32,000 nt of DNA. Origin: Candidatus Peribacter riflensis (GTDB taxonomy: Bacteria > Patescibacteriota > Gracilibacteria > Peribacterales > Peribacteraceae). Each line of letters opens with the position of its first letter. Position 1 is the stretch's first letter. Of this stretch, positions 1,402 through 29,836 are shown piece after piece. Below the pieces are notes generated by a model, which searched no databases, was not told where the DNA came from, and was given only the letters and a program-made list of their open reading frames with translations. The position numbers and the translations under genes were made by a program. Location: assembly GCA_001430755.1 (NCBI GenBank), contig CP013062.1, positions 1,020,001 through 1,052,000 of the forward strand. Direction: 5' to 3'.

Positions 1402-1578
1402 ACCAGGGAATTTCTCTGGCCCGGCATTTCTTCTTCGAAGAGTGCGCGGGAACGCATGCGCTGGCTGTGCTTTTAGGCCATCATGCATCCGATTGCCCGG
1501 GAGAGCACCGATGTCCCCAATTGGGGTCAACGACCGGAAGACTTCTCTACTCTGCAATGGTGTGATTTTGTATAAAAG

Positions 1579-2301
1579 GTGTATATATTTCTACACATGA
1601 CTCCTTTTGGACTGCCGCCTCCTGGGTCCCCAATTAAAAAAATACTCAATAGCATTTGTGACTATTCCGAAGATGACTGTTACGTAATTAGTACTGTGAT
1701 TCAGCAATCTGCTCTCGTAGAAAATATTCTAGGAACACTACTACATCGATTATTAATTACCAGGCACGGAAAGACCAAAGAAGAATTTGATAGCAGAGTT
1801 TCAGAAATAAATATTGCTATCTCGGAAATGAATATTTCCAAAAAAACTTGTTTGGTCCGAGCCCATTTAGCCAAAAAGAATGATTCTCTGGCTTCCAGAT
1901 TGGATCAAATCTTCAAAATTCGTGTTCCCATCGCACATGTTCATTATGGAATGCCTTTTGGTAAATCGATTCAAAAAGACGAAATTAAAATAGGTAGAAA
2001 AAGCATTTGGACGCCGGAAGGGCTACACGAATTTGTGCTTTCTTGCCATACAGTAGCTAAAGAGCTTATGGAAATTATTGGCGACAATCAGGAAAAGGAG
2101 TTAACGGATGCAAAAATTGAAAAGAAATTAATCGAATATACGAAAGAAAAGATCTTGAAGAAAAAGTGGTTGGGTGAAAAGGACAATACTCAATTGAGCG
2201 CGCTCTCTGAGAGAGAGAAACATCTGAATAGACTCATCGAAATGGAGGAACCTCGCAGTAAACGGGCAACAGAGAGTTTGAAAAATATGTTTCATTCCTG
2301 A
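1579..2301 (+). CDS. HEPN-like protein (MtlR/DUF4145-type helical domain with R-x4-H motif) plus a K/E-rich C-terminal coiled-coil; lies in an AT-rich island. ATG at ~1597 (MTPFG...) is a likelier start than the GTG at 1579
   Basis: 240-aa ORF fills an AT-rich patch (~1560-2330) that contrasts with the GC-rich flanks. Motif IFKIRVPIAHVHYG (R115-x4-H120, nt 1921-1938) is preceded by the amphipathic helix pattern (VISTVIQQSALVENILGTLLHRLL ... NISKKTCLVRAHL) typical of MtlR-like/DUF4145 HEPN domains. A TATATT box sits ~7 nt before the ATG. Confidence 0.55.
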   Translation: MYIFLHMTPFGLPPPGSPIKKILNSICDYSEDDCYVISTVIQQSALVENILGTLLHRLLITRHGKTKEEFDSRVSEINIAISEMNISKKTCLVRAHLAKKNDSLASRLDQIFKIRVPIAHVHYGMPFGKSIQKDEIKIGRKSIWTPEGLHEFVLSCHTVAKELMEIIGDNQEKELTDAKIEKKLIEYTKEKILKKKWLGEKDNTQLSALSEREKHLNRLIEMEEPRSKRATESLKNMFHS

Positions 2302-2335
2302 ACGAAAACAAAACAACCTACAAAATCCCGGAAAC

Positions 2336-2496
2336 GCGCCTATGTGGCGGCGATAGCGGAGGGGGTCATAGGCGCAGCACTTTCTTTCGTCCTTTCTTTG
2401 CTGCGCCTGGCAAAGAAAGGACAGATCCTGAAAACCAAAACAACAAACAGCCAACAGGTGAAGCCCTGTCACCCTTCGACAGGGCTCAGGGTGACA
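2336..2496 (+). promoter_or_regulatory. Leader region with overlapping, mutually exclusive helices upstream of the 2518 CDS (candidate attenuator/riboswitch-like leader, or stacked REP-type hairpins)
   Basis: H1 GCGCCTATG 2336-2344 / CATAGGCGC 2367-2375 (9 bp). H2 GCGCAGC 2372-2378 / GCTGCGC 2400-2406 (7 bp) overlaps both H1 and H3. H3 CCTTTCTTTGC 2391-2401 / GCAAAGAAAGG 2410-2420 (11 bp). H4 GCCCTGTC/GACAGGGC (~2463-2485) competes with H5 TGTCACCC/GGGTGACA (~2467-2496). Confidence 0.3.
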
Positions 2497-2517
2497 CTGC
2501 GGCGTACACTACACATC

Positions 2518-3003
2518 ATGGAGAACCAACCCGTTCAACCCACCGGCTGCTGCGACCCCTTCAACCCCGAACCTTGGCAGGAAAAGGAGATCACGTGGAA
2601 CAATAAGCTCTTTGTGAAGGATCACGTGACGAGCTTTCTGCATATTCCCCTCAACATGGGCAAAGTGGTGACGAGGAACATGAAACTGATCGAACAAGCC
2701 GGCGCACAGTCCTCCGTTCAGCTCATGCTCAGCGACGAAAAATCCCTCTGGGGCGCGGATATCTACATCGATGTGACGAAAGATGTCCCGGGCGCGCAGA
2801 TGGCCACGATTTCGGGAACATTCCTGACCAAAGTCTTCGAGGGACCGTACAAGAATGTCGGCAAATGGATGAAGGAGATGCAGGACTACGTCGCGGCAAA
2901 AGGGCAGACTCTCCGCAAGGTGTACTGCTGCTACACCACCTGCCCCCGTTGCGCCAAAGCGTATGGGAAGAACTACGTAGTAATTTTTGCACAGATCCGG
3001 TAG
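2518..3003 (+). CDS. Conserved hypothetical protein with an N-terminal CC and a C-terminal CxxC (possible metal/Fe-S ligand set)
   Basis: ORF 2344..3003 trimmed to the ATG at 2518 (MENQPVQPTGCCDPFNPEPW...). The upstream in-frame stretch coincides with the hairpin-rich leader. Globular-looking sequence ending YTTCPRCAKAYGKNYVVIFAQIR. I recall similar hydrolase-annotated hypotheticals but cannot verify this. Confidence 0.6.
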   Translation: MENQPVQPTGCCDPFNPEPWQEKEITWNNKLFVKDHVTSFLHIPLNMGKVVTRNMKLIEQAGAQSSVQLMLSDEKSLWGADIYIDVTKDVPGAQMATISGTFLTKVFEGPYKNVGKWMKEMQDYVAAKGQTLRKVYCCYTTCPRCAKAYGKNYVVIFAQIR

Positions 3004-20969: not shown

Positions 20970-21881
20970 ATGCCTTCTCTCTCTGTCGTCATCCCCACGT
21001 ACCGGCGGCCGAACATTCTCAGGCTCTGCCTGAAGTGCCTCGAAGCGCAAACCATCGCCGACGAATTGGAAGTGATCGTGGTGAGTGACGGTCCGGATCC
21101 CCAAACCGCAGCACTATTCAAGGAACCTACGCCCCACACCCTCCCCCCTATCACCTACCTCGAGGTTCCCAAATCGCAACAGGGGGTTGCACGCAATTTT
21201 GGCGTACGTCACGCGCACGCTCCTTTTGCGCTCTTCATCGGCGATGACATGCTGCTGGAACGCAGCGCCTGCGAGATTCATCTCCGAACACACGAAAAGA
21301 TCCGAAATGAGAAATCCCCGAAGCCCAATTCCCGATTCCCCATTCCCGAAACCGCCGTTCTCGGCTTCGTCACCTGGGACCCGGTCGTTGAGATCACGCC
21401 CGTCATGCGCTGGCTTGAGCGGAGCGGCTGGCAATTCGGGTACCCGAAGATCGCGAAGTACGCACACGCGTTCCTCCCCGAAAAGATGCAGGAACACTTC
21501 ACCTATACCAGCAACATCAGCGTGCCCACGGAGGTCGCACGGCGGTTCCGGTTCCGTGAAGACATGACCCTCTATGGCTGGGAGGATATCGAATGGGGCA
21601 TGCGGATGAAGCGGGCGGGAATTCGCCTGTACTACGAACCGGATGCCAAGGCCCTCCACCACCATCACATGACACTGGAGCAATCGCTCGCGCGCATGGA
21701 AACGCTGGGACAGTCGCTCGTCCTGCTCGCGGAGAAAGTCCCCGACTTCCGTAAACAGGTTTCTGCGGTCAGGCGGCTGGCGCTGCGGGCGAGAGCGCTC
21801 TTGCCGACGATGAGCGGAAAACACCAACGAGCTTTCTTAGGGGGAATCTCGCAAACACTTCGTAAAAAATACAAAAAATAA
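20970..21881 (+). CDS. Family 2 glycosyltransferase
   Basis: N-terminal SVVIPTYRRPNILRLCLKCLEAQT, then a DxD-like FIGDDM, typical of the GT2 GT-A fold. Confidence 0.85.
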   Translation: MPSLSVVIPTYRRPNILRLCLKCLEAQTIADELEVIVVSDGPDPQTAALFKEPTPHTLPPITYLEVPKSQQGVARNFGVRHAHAPFALFIGDDMLLERSACEIHLRTHEKIRNEKSPKPNSRFPIPETAVLGFVTWDPVVEITPVMRWLERSGWQFGYPKIAKYAHAFLPEKMQEHFTYTSNISVPTEVARRFRFREDMTLYGWEDIEWGMRMKRAGIRLYYEPDAKALHHHHMTLEQSLARMETLGQSLVLLAEKVPDFRKQVSAVRRLALRARALLPTMSGKHQRAFLGGISQTLRKKYKK

Positions 21882-21929
21882 ATCAGAGATGAGTGATCAG
21901 CCACAAGCTTCATACATCTTCATGAGAGT

Positions 21930-22066
21930 GGGGGTGGCGCGCCACGGGGGGTGAAGGGGAAGGCCCTGACACGCGCAGCGGGGAAAGCCGACGAGTCAGC
22001 TCCGAAGCCTTGGAGGAGATGACGAGGAGGCACAGGGCCGGGCGGAGTGGGGATTGGCGCGCCGGC
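21930..22066 (+). ncRNA. Copy A of an unclassified ~135-nt GC-rich structured repeat (candidate ncRNA / MITE-like element)
   Basis: Aligns with 26881-27019. Bracketing helix GGCGCGCC 21936-21943 / GGCGCGCC 22056-22063. Inner helix GGCCCTG 21962-21968 / CAGGGCC 22033-22039. Strand is assigned only because both flanking genes are on +. Confidence 0.5.
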
Positions 22067-22142
22067 GTTTGGGCGGAAGCCTTTTCGCCGGAAAAGGGTG
22101 GAAAGAGTAATGGTGATCATCCCATGCTATGCTTTCGACCTC

Positions 22143-25359: not shown

Positions 25360-26828
25360 GAACCCGATTTGCTCCATCTCCTACTGGCTTTATCCATGTT
25401 GGGAACCTGAGAACGGCACTCTTTGCCTGGCTCATCGCGAAACAGACGAACGGAAAATTCCTCCTGAGAGTCGAGGACACGGACCAAGCGCGATCCGTCC
25501 CGGGAACCATCGAGAGTGTCCTCAAAACCCTTCATTGGGCCGGCCTCGATCCGGATGAGGGCGTGATGCTGCGCAAAGGAGTGGTGGCACAGGAAGGCAC
25601 GCACGGCCCATACATCCAGTCCGAACGTCTGGAGCTCTACCGCACATCCGCCGGAGAGCTCCTGAAAGCAGGGCACGCCTACCCCTGCTTCTGCACGCCA
25701 GAGCGGCTCACGAAGATGCGCGAGGAACAGATGGCACGGAAACAGGCACCCATGTATGACCGGCTCTGTACACGCCTGCCGAAGAAGGAGATCGAGCAGC
25801 GTCTGGAGCGCGGTGATCCCCATGTGCTCCGGCTTCTCGTTCCGCACGAACGGACATTTACCTACACCGATGAAGTCCGCGGAGAGGTCTCGTTCCAGGG
25901 TCACACGGTGGATGATCAGGTTCTTCTCAAGAGCGACGGTTTCCCCACGTACCACCTCGCCCACGTGGTGGATGATCACCTGATGGAGATCGATCTCGTG
26001 ATCCGCGGGGAAGAATGGCTCAGCTCCACTCCCAAGCACCTGCTGCTGTTCGAGCGTCTGGGCTGGCAGCCTCCGAAGTACGCGCACGTACCACTCCTCC
26101 TGAATAAAGACCGTACGAAATTGAGTAAGCGTCAGCAGGACGTGGCGGCCGAGGAGTACATCGCAAAGGGATATTTACCCGAAGCACTCATCAATTTTCT
26201 CGCGCTCCTCGGCTGGAACCCGGGATCGGAGCAGGAGCTTTTCTCGCTCGAGGAATTGACCGAGGCCTTCTCGCTGGAACGCGTGCAGAAAGCCGGGGCG
26301 ATCTTTGACTTAACCAAATTGGACTGGCTGCAAGGCCAGTGGATCCGCAGGCTCCCGCTTGCGGAGTTTGCCGACCGGCTGCAGATGCTCACTGTGGAGC
26401 GCTTTCCGGAGGCCAAGCACGACGCGCACTTCAAAGAGAAGGCTGCACTCGTCCATGAGCGCGTAACCTTCCTGAAAGAGGGGCCCGACATGCTCGCCTT
26501 CTTCTATGTGGATCCGAAAGTTGATTTGGACCTCCTCGCCAATGAAAAACAGAAGATCACGAAGGAGCTCCTGCCCAAGGTCCTCAAGGTGCTGGTGGAA
26601 ACCATGGAGAAAATTTCTGAGGATGAATGGACAATCGACTCGCTCAAAGAAAAACTGCTCGCCCGCGCCAAGGCCGAAGATCTGACGCAGGGGCAACTGC
26701 TCTGGCCACTCCGTGCCGCTCTCACGGGTCTGCCCTATAGCCCGGGTGCCTTCGAGGTGGCTGTGGCGCTGGGCAAAGAGACCACCCTCCTGCGACTGGA
26801 AGTAGCCCGGGCAGGCCTCCAAAAATAA
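25356..26828 (+). CDS. gltX: Glutamyl-tRNA synthetase
   Basis: Class I motifs: HIGH variant PTGFIHVGNLRTALF and KMSKS variant KLSKRQ. Full-length GluRS-like sequence of 490 aa. Confidence 0.95.
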   Translation: MRTRFAPSPTGFIHVGNLRTALFAWLIAKQTNGKFLLRVEDTDQARSVPGTIESVLKTLHWAGLDPDEGVMLRKGVVAQEGTHGPYIQSERLELYRTSAGELLKAGHAYPCFCTPERLTKMREEQMARKQAPMYDRLCTRLPKKEIEQRLERGDPHVLRLLVPHERTFTYTDEVRGEVSFQGHTVDDQVLLKSDGFPTYHLAHVVDDHLMEIDLVIRGEEWLSSTPKHLLLFERLGWQPPKYAHVPLLLNKDRTKLSKRQQDVAAEEYIAKGYLPEALINFLALLGWNPGSEQELFSLEELTEAFSLERVQKAGAIFDLTKLDWLQGQWIRRLPLAEFADRLQMLTVERFPEAKHDAHFKEKAALVHERVTFLKEGPDMLAFFYVDPKVDLDLLANEKQKITKELLPKVLKVLVETMEKISEDEWTIDSLKEKLLARAKAEDLTQGQLLWPLRAALTGLPYSPGAFEVAVALGKETTLLRLEVARAGLQK

Positions 26829-26880
26829 CGTAAAGACACACCGCCGGTGCATCTCAACAAAACAACGCACAGCAACCGTT

Positions 26881-27019
26881 GGGGGTCCGCCGCCACGGGG
26901 GGTGAAGGGGAAGGCCCTGCACTGCCGCAAGAGCAGTGCGCGCCGACGAGACGAGCCGAAGCCTTGGAGGCGAGGCGAGGAGGCACAGGGCCGAGCGGAG
27001 TTGGGATTGGCGGCGGTGC
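26881..27019 (+). ncRNA. Copy B of the unclassified ~135-nt GC-rich structured repeat
   Basis: Bracketing helix CCGCCGCC 26887-26894 / GGCGGCGG 27009-27016. Inner helix 26913-26919 / 26986-26992. Variable hairpin GCACTGC/GCAGTGC 26919-26939. Confidence 0.5.
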
Positions 27020-27030
27020 GCTTCTCTTTG

Positions 27031-27065
27031 CTTCTTTCTCTTGTCGGGCAGACAAGAGAAAGAAG
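27031..27065 (+). other. Perfect 15-bp hairpin (CTTCTTTCTCTTGTC-gggca-GACAAGAGAAAGAAG) directly after repeat copy B
   Basis: Arms 27031-27045 and 27051-27065. No U tract on either strand, so it is not a canonical intrinsic terminator. Confidence 0.5.
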
Positions 27066-27141
27066 AGAACCGATAAGGCTTCTCCCTACAGATAGAAAAG
27101 TAGAATCCGTGCTAAGATCTCCCTGTCTTTCCCTCCTCCCC

Positions 27142-28787: not shown

Positions 28788-29645
28788 TCAGAAGGGCAGG
28801 TCCTCCACTTTCACCTCGGATGCATACTGAATCTCGGGGATGTCGGCCGATGTGGGAGCCCCTGCGGCAGGAGCCTCTTGCGATCTCGGGGCGGAACGCC
28901 GCTGGGAACTCGACTCCACGGCCTCAGAGGCCGCAGCATTCCGCACGCCCAGGAGCGCACACTGATCGGCGATGATCTCGGTCGTCGTGCGCTTCTGGCC
29001 TTGCTGCGTCTCCCAACTGCGGGTCTGTACGCGGCCGGAAACGAAGACACGGCTGCCCTTGTGCACCAGCTTGCTCACCTCATCGGCAAGCTCGCCCCAC
29101 ACCACCACATTGTGGAACTCCGCGCGCTCTTTGGTCTCGCCAGTCGAGCGTTCCTTCCAGCGATCATTGGTCGCCACACCCAGTGTCAGCACCTGCTTGC
29201 CGCCGGTCGTCGTGCGGATTTCTGGCTCACGGGTGACGTTGCCCACAACATCCGCACGGTTCACGGCCGCCAGTGTCCGTTTCGCACCCTCAGGAGTGGG
29301 CAGCTGACCGTCTTTGGGATCAAGGAGGATCATGTCGAGCGCCACGATCTTCGTCTTGCTGCGCTTTTCGTGAGTCGTCTGATCTTCCCAGGAATCGGTT
29401 TGCAGCCTGCCGCCGATGAATATCTGGGATCCCGGCCGCACGTACTGACCGGCAAAATCCGCCATAGAGCCCCACAGCGTGACGGTGTGAAAGGCCCGCC
29501 CCTGCAGCGCCTCGCCGCGCTCAGATTGAAAGGAATACGGCACCACCACATTCAAATCCACAACGCTCGTGCCCCCGGGGGTCTGACGAATTTCGACGGG
29601 CTGCGTCTGGTAGCCAACAAGGTGTACGCGATTGAGAGAGAACAT
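28788..29645 (-). CDS. ssb: Single-stranded DNA-binding protein with two tandem OB folds and an acidic ...EDLPF tip
   Basis: ORF trimmed to Met24 (MFSLNRVHLVGYQTQPVEIRQTPGG). Second OB fold starts at ...VNRADVVGNVTREPEIRTTTGGK.... Both carry the W..GRLQT/GRVQTRSWE pattern. The C-terminal disordered tail ends in DLPF. Confidence 0.88.
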   Translation of the reverse strand: MFSLNRVHLVGYQTQPVEIRQTPGGTSVVDLNVVVPYSFQSERGEALQGRAFHTVTLWGSMADFAGQYVRPGSQIFIGGRLQTDSWEDQTTHEKRSKTKIVALDMILLDPKDGQLPTPEGAKRTLAAVNRADVVGNVTREPEIRTTTGGKQVLTLGVATNDRWKERSTGETKERAEFHNVVVWGELADEVSKLVHKGSRVFVSGRVQTRSWETQQGQKRTTTEIIADQCALLGVRNAAASEAVESSSQRRSAPRSQEAPAAGAPTSADIPEIQYASEVKVEDLPF

Positions 29646-29836
29646 GCTTCGAAGGGAGAATGGAAGTAAAGGAGGCCACGCACTGCCGTGGGAAGGGAAG
29701 GTACACCAGTGCATCTCCCATGCAAACGAAAGAGGTTGAACAATGACAGAGTCTCATTCGCAATGATCATCTCCGCTTTCCAATCCCTCATCCCACCCCC
29801 TCATCCTCACCCTAACATGGTACGATACCGTCCACG

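Follow-up and report, generated by a model that had tools for sequence, protein, structure and literature searches.

A modular, covarying intergenic repeat of Candidatus Peribacteria whose orientation follows replication rather than neighbouring genes

Modular intergenic repeats of 100-200 nt with predicted stable folds and compensated changes are known from the pneumococcal BOX, Neisseria Correia and Bacillus cereus bcr families, which occur in either orientation relative to genes, with terminal repeats and target duplications in the case of Correia and bcr1. We know of no report of a replication-linked orientation for BOX, Correia or bcr repeats. REPs likewise keep their complementarity while their sequence differs and are processed as single strands by TnpA-REP, each being a single imperfect palindrome, 21-65 nt long, that has a conserved guide tetranucleotide on its 5' side and needs its stem mismatches for activity (PMC3333891, PMC6006769). 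Members of the IS200/IS605 group have subterminal hairpins, and their insertion is oriented with the lagging-strand template (PMC5027513).

Here we describe a repeat of Candidatus Peribacteria that shares features with each of these systems. Similar to BOX, Correia and bcr repeats it is modular, intergenic, compensated and found in either orientation relative to genes, however it lacks the terminal repeats and target duplications of Correia and bcr1. It resembles REP/BIME elements in consisting of extragenic, multi-copy, GC-rich hairpins that keep their complementarity across types and are built as mosaics of modules, but the Peribacteria unit is ~190 nt long with four helices, a three-way junction and near-perfect stems, it shows no visible guide tetranucleotide (none by the 3' hairpin beyond the module sequence itself), and no RAYT (TnpA-REP) gene flanked by copies was found in the sampled 8-kb blocks. 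As in IS200/IS605 elements and PATEs, terminal inverted repeats and target-site duplications are missing, a hairpin sits near one end, and orientation is biased relative to replication (PMC5027513), the active strand in our case being deduced. It differs from IS200/IS605 in that tnpA/tnpB are absent near the copies, in having no conserved target tetra- or pentanucleotide, in a left end made of a G-rich box and a long-range helix instead of a simple subterminal hairpin, and in a much more elaborate core. Because of its size, its multi-helix core, the missing guide tetranucleotide and the unseen transposase, the repeat is not a member of either the REP/BIME or the IS200/IS605 group. With orphan structured RNAs in Rfam it has in common covarying helices, conserved unpaired nucleotides and a multi-stem junction, yet it has no Rfam match and no consistent relation to genes, contains few wobbles and is oriented with replication. 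No description of the family was found in Rfam or in the searchable literature, including large motif surveys, and the paper reporting closed Peribacter genomes does not mention it (PMC4736985). The family thus appears new to the literature, while structured intergenic repeats as a kind are already known.

The window analysed here is a 32,000-nt stretch of Candidatus Peribacter riflensis (contig CP013062.1) whose Pfam-identified + strand genes encode GT2, FtsW, MurG, cyclophilin, GltX, a 154-aa protein of unknown function and MurB; the window GltX is identical to GltX of NCBI assembly GCA_036837745.1. All features below are on the + strand. The original prediction had picked out two related segments at 21930-22066 (copy A) and 26881-27019 (copy B), and we find these coordinates to be correct: the two align in the same orientation with long identical blocks, and the window contains exactly two occurrences each of the 21-mer GGGGTGAAGGGGAAGGCCCTG and the 18-mer CGAGGAGGCACAGGGCCG, compared with 0.00 and 0.04 expected from shuffles. 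The 8-nt arms are, as it had claimed, unlike between the copies and complementary within each, namely GGCGCGCC in copy A (21936-21943 and 22056-22063) and CCGCCGCC (26887-26894) with GGCGGCGG (27009-27016) in copy B. The four compensatory exchanges seen between these arms are real differences, but they are one block difference between two subfamilies and not independent events; at least six independent compensated arm variants are contributed by other copies. The gene context was also confirmed, with copy A lying between the GT2 gene (stop at 21881) and FtsW (Pfam), and copy B between GltX (stop at 26828; Pfam) and the gene for the 154-aa protein, which starts at ~27143. What had been described as an element of ~135 nt proved to be the core of a longer unit that also has a 5' G-rich box and a 3' T-rich tract with a hairpin, for a total of ~190 nt (copy A ~21928-22104, copy B ~26879-27069), and a third copy of the window, at ~2356-2421, is without the core. 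That the region might belong to a conserved protein-coding frame was ruled out, as the copies differ by 1- and 4-nt indels; these non-triplet indels and a coding-potential model both led us to reject a coding frame.

Searching for further copies, as the original prediction had proposed, showed a family of at least 120 copies in 26 Candidatus Peribacteria assemblies, with up to ~25 copies per genome. An exact scan of the 20-mer GGGTGAAGGGGAAGGCCCTG over 185,579 species, one genome each, returned 115 stretches, of which 112 were in 26 Candidatus Peribacteria/Peregrinibacteria assemblies and three were chance matches in other phyla, such that no true copy was found outside Peribacteria/Peregrinibacteria among these genomes. 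The exact word is present in ~70% of copies, as estimated from blocks holding two copies, and a covariance model built from 88 copies recovered the same copies and only a handful without the word. UBA11694 carries 24 exact-match copies over four contigs that add up to 1.15 Mb, or about one in every 48 kb. Across the family, the majority of copies are located between called genes. A phage origin was rejected, since the matches on viral contigs are chance matches without a covariance-model match and no true copy is found there. This is a lineage-specific repeat of Candidatus Peribacteria with a modular unit.

From 5' to 3' the unit is made up of a G-rich box (~7 nt), helix P1, the strand CGGGGGGTGAAGGGGAA, helix P2 (GGCCCUG/CAGGGCC), a variable P3 position, a long arm, a GGGYGGAG strand, the right arm and a 3' module. 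P1 corresponds to the 8-nt arms plus one A-T pair, giving a 9-bp helix that closes the core, and the core itself is a three-way junction with conserved purine-rich unpaired strands. The P2 helix had been described as enclosing a length-variable stem-loop; it is present in both copies around the variable hairpin, however it also encloses a second, longer hairpin arm. This long arm consists of a GCC/GGC helix, a symmetric purine loop GACGA/GAGGA, a 9-bp P4 and the conserved loop GAAKCCYTGKA, and the 3' module is a T-rich tract followed by a perfect hairpin of 11-15 bp. There are two types of 3' module, each going with an arm type, with copy A carrying type 1 and copy B type 2.

In copy A the outer left end is the G-rich box GTGGGGGT (21928-21935), placed there by a position profile of 84 copies in which conservation begins ~7 nt 5' of the arm, with G in 60-73 of the 84 at positions -5 to -1 and zero conservation further upstream. 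The 5' strand of P1 (GGCGCGCC plus A, 21936-21944) pairs with its 3' strand (T plus GGCGCGCC, 22055-22063), and the 5' strand of P2 (GGCCCTG, 21962-21968) with CAGGGCC at 22033-22039, the pairing in both cases being that of the 88-copy alignment. Between the 5' strands lies the unpaired purine-rich strand CGGGGGGTGAAGGGGAA (21945-21961), which is the same in both window copies. The variable P3 position (21969-21986) holds a weak hairpin here, and the long arm (21987-22031), defined by covariation, contains the GCC/GGC helix, the GACGA/GAGGA loop, P4 (GTCAGCTCC/GGAGATGAC) and the conserved loop GAAGCCTTGGA. A second purine-rich unpaired strand, GGGCGGAGTGGGGAT (22040-22054), follows the consensus GGGYGGAG and then a variable tail. 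The type 1 module of copy A (22064-22104) reads GGCGTTTGGG, then the hairpin CCTTTTC-GCCG-GAAAAGG, then GTGGAAAG; the 5' half of its stem is partly degenerate relative to the type 1 consensus, GGCGTTTTGGCKCCACCTTTGTC-GCCG-GACAAAGGTGGMAA, which is found in ~50 copies.

Copy B starts with the G-rich box TTGGGGGT (26879-26886), and its core (26887-27016), closed by a P1 of CCGCCGCC(A)/(T)GGCGGCGG, matches the covariance model with 100.6 bits (E = 1.5e-19). It has P2 at 26913-26919/26986-26992, a P3 hairpin CACTGC/GCAGTG at 26920-26938 and a P4 arm with the loop GAAGCCTTGGA at 26942-26984; read from the sequence, its subfamily has G.A/A.G mismatches in place of the lower P4. Its type 2 module (27017-27069) is TGCGCTTCTCTTTG followed by the hairpin CTTCTTTCTCTTGTC-GGGCA-GACAAGAGAAAGAAG (DNA fold z = -4.4), and modules of this type, present in ~34 copies, go with the arm types CCGCCGCC and CCGCGCGC. 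The core-less copy (2356-2421) has a G-box GCGGAGGGGGTC, a short linker, TTTCTTTCG and a type 2 hairpin TCCTTTCTTTGC-TGCGCCTG-GCAAAGAAAGGA. Across the family the P3 position is taken by perfect hairpins of 3-15 bp with unrelated sequences and is empty in some copies, and the P3 loops are often C(GAA)G or C(GTA)G triloops, i.e. GNA closed by C-G. The unpaired strands that are at least 90% conserved are GCCGACGAG, the P4 loop and GAGGAGGCACAGGGCC. As the CGGGGGGTGAAGGGGAA strand overlaps the 20-mer scan word, its conservation is partly a matter of ascertainment.

The helices are maintained across the family, as the original prediction had held for the arms. P1 is 97.5% paired in 88 copies with double substitutions at 9/9 pairs, and over the whole structure 95.6% of cells in the 88-copy alignment are standard pairs, compared with ~40% when partners are slid by 1-3 columns; the structure lies above every slid control. 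Double substitutions occur at 20/28 pairs, and 0/500 shuffles reach the observed values. Every pair of P4 covaries (for example columns 88-124, with C-G in 32 copies, U-A in 29 and G-C in 23), as do 2/3 pairs of the GCC/GGC helix, and P2 is nearly invariant (99.7% paired, zero double changes, U.G for U-A in five copies). Mutual information shows the known helices only, with no extra pairings or pseudoknots. As for the chemistry of the pairs, the core helices contain 2308 Watson-Crick pairs with 30 G.T (1.2% of cells) and 19 A.C (0.8%), the remaining mismatches being mostly at one fixed G.A position. For the 3' hairpins, with the two module types taken together, 86 distinct sequences give 1038 Watson-Crick pairs against 5 G.T and 1 A.C, and P3 stems have zero mismatches. 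By these counts wobbles are rare and only weakly asymmetric between the strands, and the pairing looks DNA-like rather than RNA-like; in typical RNA families wobble pairs are common. Folding energies, calculated as RNA and as DNA on both strands, were uninformative at such high GC (z -0.2 to -1.9 relative to shuffles).

These features must be weighed in considering whether the repeat is a functional structured RNA of a new, unclassified class, whose transcription from the G-rich strand would rely on read-through or on weak promoters nearby. Its function would then lie in the three-way junction and the purine-rich loops, possibly as a G-quadruplex or a protein-binding GA motif, and the DNA copies would be either multi-copy genes or a mobile element with RNA as its active form. 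The covarying helices combined with unpaired strands at least 90% conserved are what such an RNA would show, as are a variable-length P3 hairpin at a fixed position, a symmetric GACGA/GAGGA loop that can, reading from the sequence, form tandem G.A pairs, the excess of G.U over A.C on the reported strand (30 vs 19) together with the U.G of five P2 copies, and the loss of the conserved core sequence in truncated copies. However, wobbles make up just 1.2% of cells and the folding energies are no better than those of shuffles. That the element matches no known RNA class was upheld: searching Rfam on both strands, at the gathering threshold and at E<=10, gave nothing meaningful, the only gathering-threshold match in the window being the 16S rRNA and the E<=10 matches around copies having chance-level scores of 11-22 bits, which for an RNA family is one more point against. 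Moreover, no conserved sequence was seen beyond ~7 nt upstream of the arm or past the 3' hairpin, and hence there is no conserved promoter; at the two window copies we found no promoter- or terminator-like site, with the exception of one minus-strand hairpin after gltX. A terminator reading of the 3' hairpin was also rejected, as the sequence that comes next on the element strand is A-rich and not T-rich, and the T-run on the opposite strand precedes the hairpin.

The relation of the copies to genes and to replication bears most directly on this question. Genes were called by a codon-usage model trained on the loci, which reproduced the Pfam-verified window genes, and the genes flanking 78 copies are oriented at random relative to the element: 24 copies lie same/same, 18 opposite/opposite, 20 convergent and 16 divergent, and restricting the count to high-confidence genes does not alter this result. 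The element shares its strand with the upstream gene in 44/78 copies and with the downstream gene in 40/78, and the flanking genes are unrelated housekeeping genes. Eighteen of the 78 copies would thus be antisense to both neighbours and 36 to one, and with neither a constant sense orientation nor a constant position relative to a regulated gene, a cis-regulatory mRNA element was rejected. In contrast, the orientation of the element follows local GC skew. With elements masked in the calculation, the G-rich strand of the element lies where that strand's GC skew is negative in 78/95 blocks (binomial p = 1.6e-10), strong-skew blocks go in the same direction by 53 vs 5, and ~18% of copies are oppositely oriented relative to skew. 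Along long contigs the copies keep one orientation and reverse it where the skew changes sign, and the window copies obey the same rule. Because the rule holds alike within genes of the one and of the other orientation (67/86 and 63/82) and genes show no strand bias (48.5% vs 51.5%) by which the leading strand could have been calibrated, the signal is replication-associated. The original prediction's preference for a UTR element or small RNA does not survive the random gene orientation, the missing conserved promoter and the few, near-symmetric wobbles; random gene orientation, lack of a promoter and replication bias do not fit either a cis-regulatory RNA or a small-RNA gene family. Considering that the copies also decay or are replaced at orthologous sites, we regard a structured RNA as unlikely, and since the copies follow the direction of replication and not that of neighbouring genes, a DNA-level, probably mobile, repeat is likelier than a gene-regulating RNA.

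By the usual rule the leading strand is G- and T-rich, and in these genomes the G-rich genomic strand is also T-rich. This leading-strand signature, together with the regular bipartite skew of closed Peribacter genomes (PMC4736985), suggests that the G-rich strand of the element corresponds to the lagging strand, with its C-rich complement on the lagging-strand template. The 16S gene of the window, which sits on the skew-called lagging strand, counts against this strand assignment. The orientation bias could also stem from selective loss of one orientation and not from the mechanism of insertion.

Such selection would be expected if the repeat were a fork-polar DNA site that serves the host, for the binding or loading of a replication, repair or segregation factor or as a single-strand initiation signal, with the one orientation held by selection and not by the mode of insertion. 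A strong replichore-wide orientation bias, copies along whole contigs at about one per 48 kb, a core sequence conserved over 26 species-level assemblies and the finding of no mobilising gene in the flanks are all consistent with a site of this kind. However, ~18% of copies are oppositely oriented, and known polar sites such as Ter, KOPS and Chi, at 8-23 bp, are far shorter than this unit of 190 nt with its several hairpins. A KOPS- or Chi-like motif in particular was rejected, by what is generally known of the strand and size of such motifs, as the unit is far too large and, if the usual skew rule applies, its G-rich strand is not the one on which such a motif would lie. Further evidence against a host site comes from the turnover of copies. 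In L016, a related species with 80-87% protein identity, both window sites are occupied, yet the copy between GT2 and ftsW is interrupted by ~190 nt of another repeat and the gltX copy is truncated. At the site 3' of gltX a full copy is present in the window, one and the same truncation, with a mutated core, in two relatives, and unlike sequence in two others, one of which has another repeat there. Copies that are core-less or have internal deletions are also found in L080 and L083, and several copies have small hairpin repeats (25-38 nt) nested within them, at more than one position. Copies at orthologous sites are thus truncated, interrupted, internally deleted or replaced without apparent consequence, and the truncated ones decay. 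Moreover, 42/79 copies have their nearest relative within their own genome, compared with 6.6 expected, and paralogous copies in one genome share variants that are absent from their orthologues; this clustering by genome suggests proliferation or gene conversion. We therefore consider a host-serving site distinctly unlikely.

The alternative raised by the original prediction, a MITE-like element, was right in that this is a multi-copy interspersed element, but not if a classical MITE is meant, i.e. a derivative of a DDE transposon whose terminal inverted repeats would be the 8-nt arms. Such an element would be multi-copy and intergenic, ~130-190 nt long and provided with inverted repeats, as this one is. 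The arms are however internal and not terminal, as conservation continues for ~7 nt beyond the left arm and for ~45-55 nt beyond the right one, and the two outer ends of the unit are not inverted repeats of each other. The arms also vary between subfamilies, where repeats bound by a transposase should be conserved. We found no target-site duplication, the longest word shared between the flanks of 77 copies being 3.90 nt compared with 3.80 nt in shuffled pairings, and no related insertion sequence in the flanks. Cut-and-paste movement into double-stranded DNA would in addition not be expected to give a replication-strand orientation bias, and we judge a classical MITE highly improbable.

The reading that we favour, with confidence and doubt about evenly balanced, is that of a non-autonomous interspersed repeat, folding as single-stranded DNA at replication forks and spreading in that form. 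One strand of the element would fold into hairpins while single-stranded at the fork, an enzyme whose gene lies elsewhere in the genome would recognise the folded form and its conserved unpaired bases, and copying or movement of the element to other intergenic sites would follow, much as HUH (Y1) transposases handle REP/BIME and IS200/IS605-derived miniature elements. A single-stranded DNA repeat of this type would account for the near-perfect complementarity, for intact copies that are alike within a genome while truncated ones decay, for the missing target-site duplication, and for an orientation that is fixed relative to replication and random relative to genes. Membership of the family, its distribution, modular build, covariation, orientation statistics, lack of duplications and the decay of truncated copies are observed here, and the activity of the single-stranded DNA form, the mobility and the kind of enzyme are deduced; none of four syntenic pairs gave a clean filled-vs-empty site, their flanks being too diverged or occupied by other repeats, so mobility in particular is deduced.

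Several observations count against single-stranded DNA repeats as the explanation. The 130-nt multi-helix core, the conserved purine strands and the tandem G.A loop look RNA-like, and this core is more elaborate than any known HUH substrate. On the reported strand G.T slightly exceeds A.C (30 to 19), and five P2 helices have a U.G. The missing filled-vs-empty pair also belongs here, as does the outcome of our search for a mobiliser: in ~0.9 Mb of flanks there was no transposase, HUH/Y1 or reverse-transcriptase ORF beside copies and no autonomous insertion sequence with the same ends, and an HUH/Y motif scan of all ORFs of at least 90 aa in the 8-kb blocks around copies gave no candidate. Clustering of 713 flanking proteins brought out no partner protein but only orthologous housekeeping sets, the recurrent ones by Pfam being SLH/sortase, MFS, UvrC, DHFR and similar. 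Nor was a conserved target tetranucleotide visible at the unit ends, where upstream flank information is <= 0.24 bit. We would give a slim chance to a further possibility, that this is a structured module of single-stranded nucleic acid, new in kind and linked to the replication fork, either a mobile element or a chromosomal signal. In the first case the mobilising enzyme would belong to a class that has yet to be connected with transposition in these minimal genomes; in the second it would be a signal read on one template strand, for example in priming or restart. In both, recognition would be through a quadruplex-like core, formed by the conserved internal loop of G-tracts that is clamped between two helices.

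The candidate single-stranded DNA repeat has implications beyond its own mechanism. For RNA discovery it is a caution, as DNA-level repeats can show strong covariation and conserved loops, and testing orientation relative to genes and relative to replication is a cheap way to discriminate between an RNA and a DNA-level repeat. In metagenome-assembled genomes the copies can be of practical use as markers of replichore orientation and strain history. Bacteria of the Candidate Phyla Radiation have tiny streamlined genomes and are thought to be poor in repetitive DNA, and here a genome type of 1.2 Mb carries ~25 copies of an elaborate 190-nt element along with at least two further families of small hairpin repeats. 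If the mobility proposed here is true, it would point to single-strand DNA transposition, or a new mobilising activity, in the Peribacteria lineage.

The ~190-nt modular, hairpin-rich intergenic repeat of Candidatus Peribacteria (the main element) shares its loci with two further repeat families. We found that the first of these is a tiny hairpin of ~25-38 nt with the consensus GTCAYCCTGAGC-n(3-6)-GTCGAAGGRTGAC, in which a UGA/GAA purine loop is closed by a 5-7 bp stem. Peribacteria loci totalling 0.82 Mb contain 43 matches to it; it occurs in both orientations and is also nested within the main element at several different positions. The window carries one at 2467-2496 on the - strand, with no Rfam match found in the window, and others lie in L022, L036, L051, L059, L101, L102 and L113, among further loci. 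The other family consists of C-rich and G-rich palindromes, CCCCCTCTCCC...GGGAGAGGGGG (L016 1395-1590 and 7005-7050; L124 2990-3130; L030 around 567); a member interrupts one main-element copy, and in another species a member occupies the site downstream of gltX.

The window mini-hairpin lies, together with weak ORFs and a main-element copy lacking the core, in the 1.6 kb (1403-3003) 3' of the 16S rRNA gene (1-1402). This gene has the shortened helices typical of CPR and is on the lagging strand as judged by GC and AT skew, and no 23S rRNA gene was found downstream of it within the window.

Directly 3' of the gltX stop codon we observe a separate hairpin (window 26833-26855; L016 6347-6367; L123 around 2978-2998) whose stem is preserved between species by compensated changes. 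On the gene strand it is followed by A-rich rather than T-rich sequence, and the 3' hairpin of the main element displays this pattern too.

Two proteins were also noted: a 308-aa single-strand DNA-binding protein (window 28788-29714, - strand) with two SSB (OB-fold) domains in a single chain, and a UvrC homologue (L036 803-3262) with a GNAT acetyltransferase domain inserted between its RNase H-like domains.

Just 3' of the main element and ahead of the next gene are conserved, extended -10-like boxes, TGATATACT and TGCTAAGAT (L056 around 1520-1545; L103 5140-5160; window 27100-27118). This suggests that the main element is located upstream of the native promoters without replacing them.
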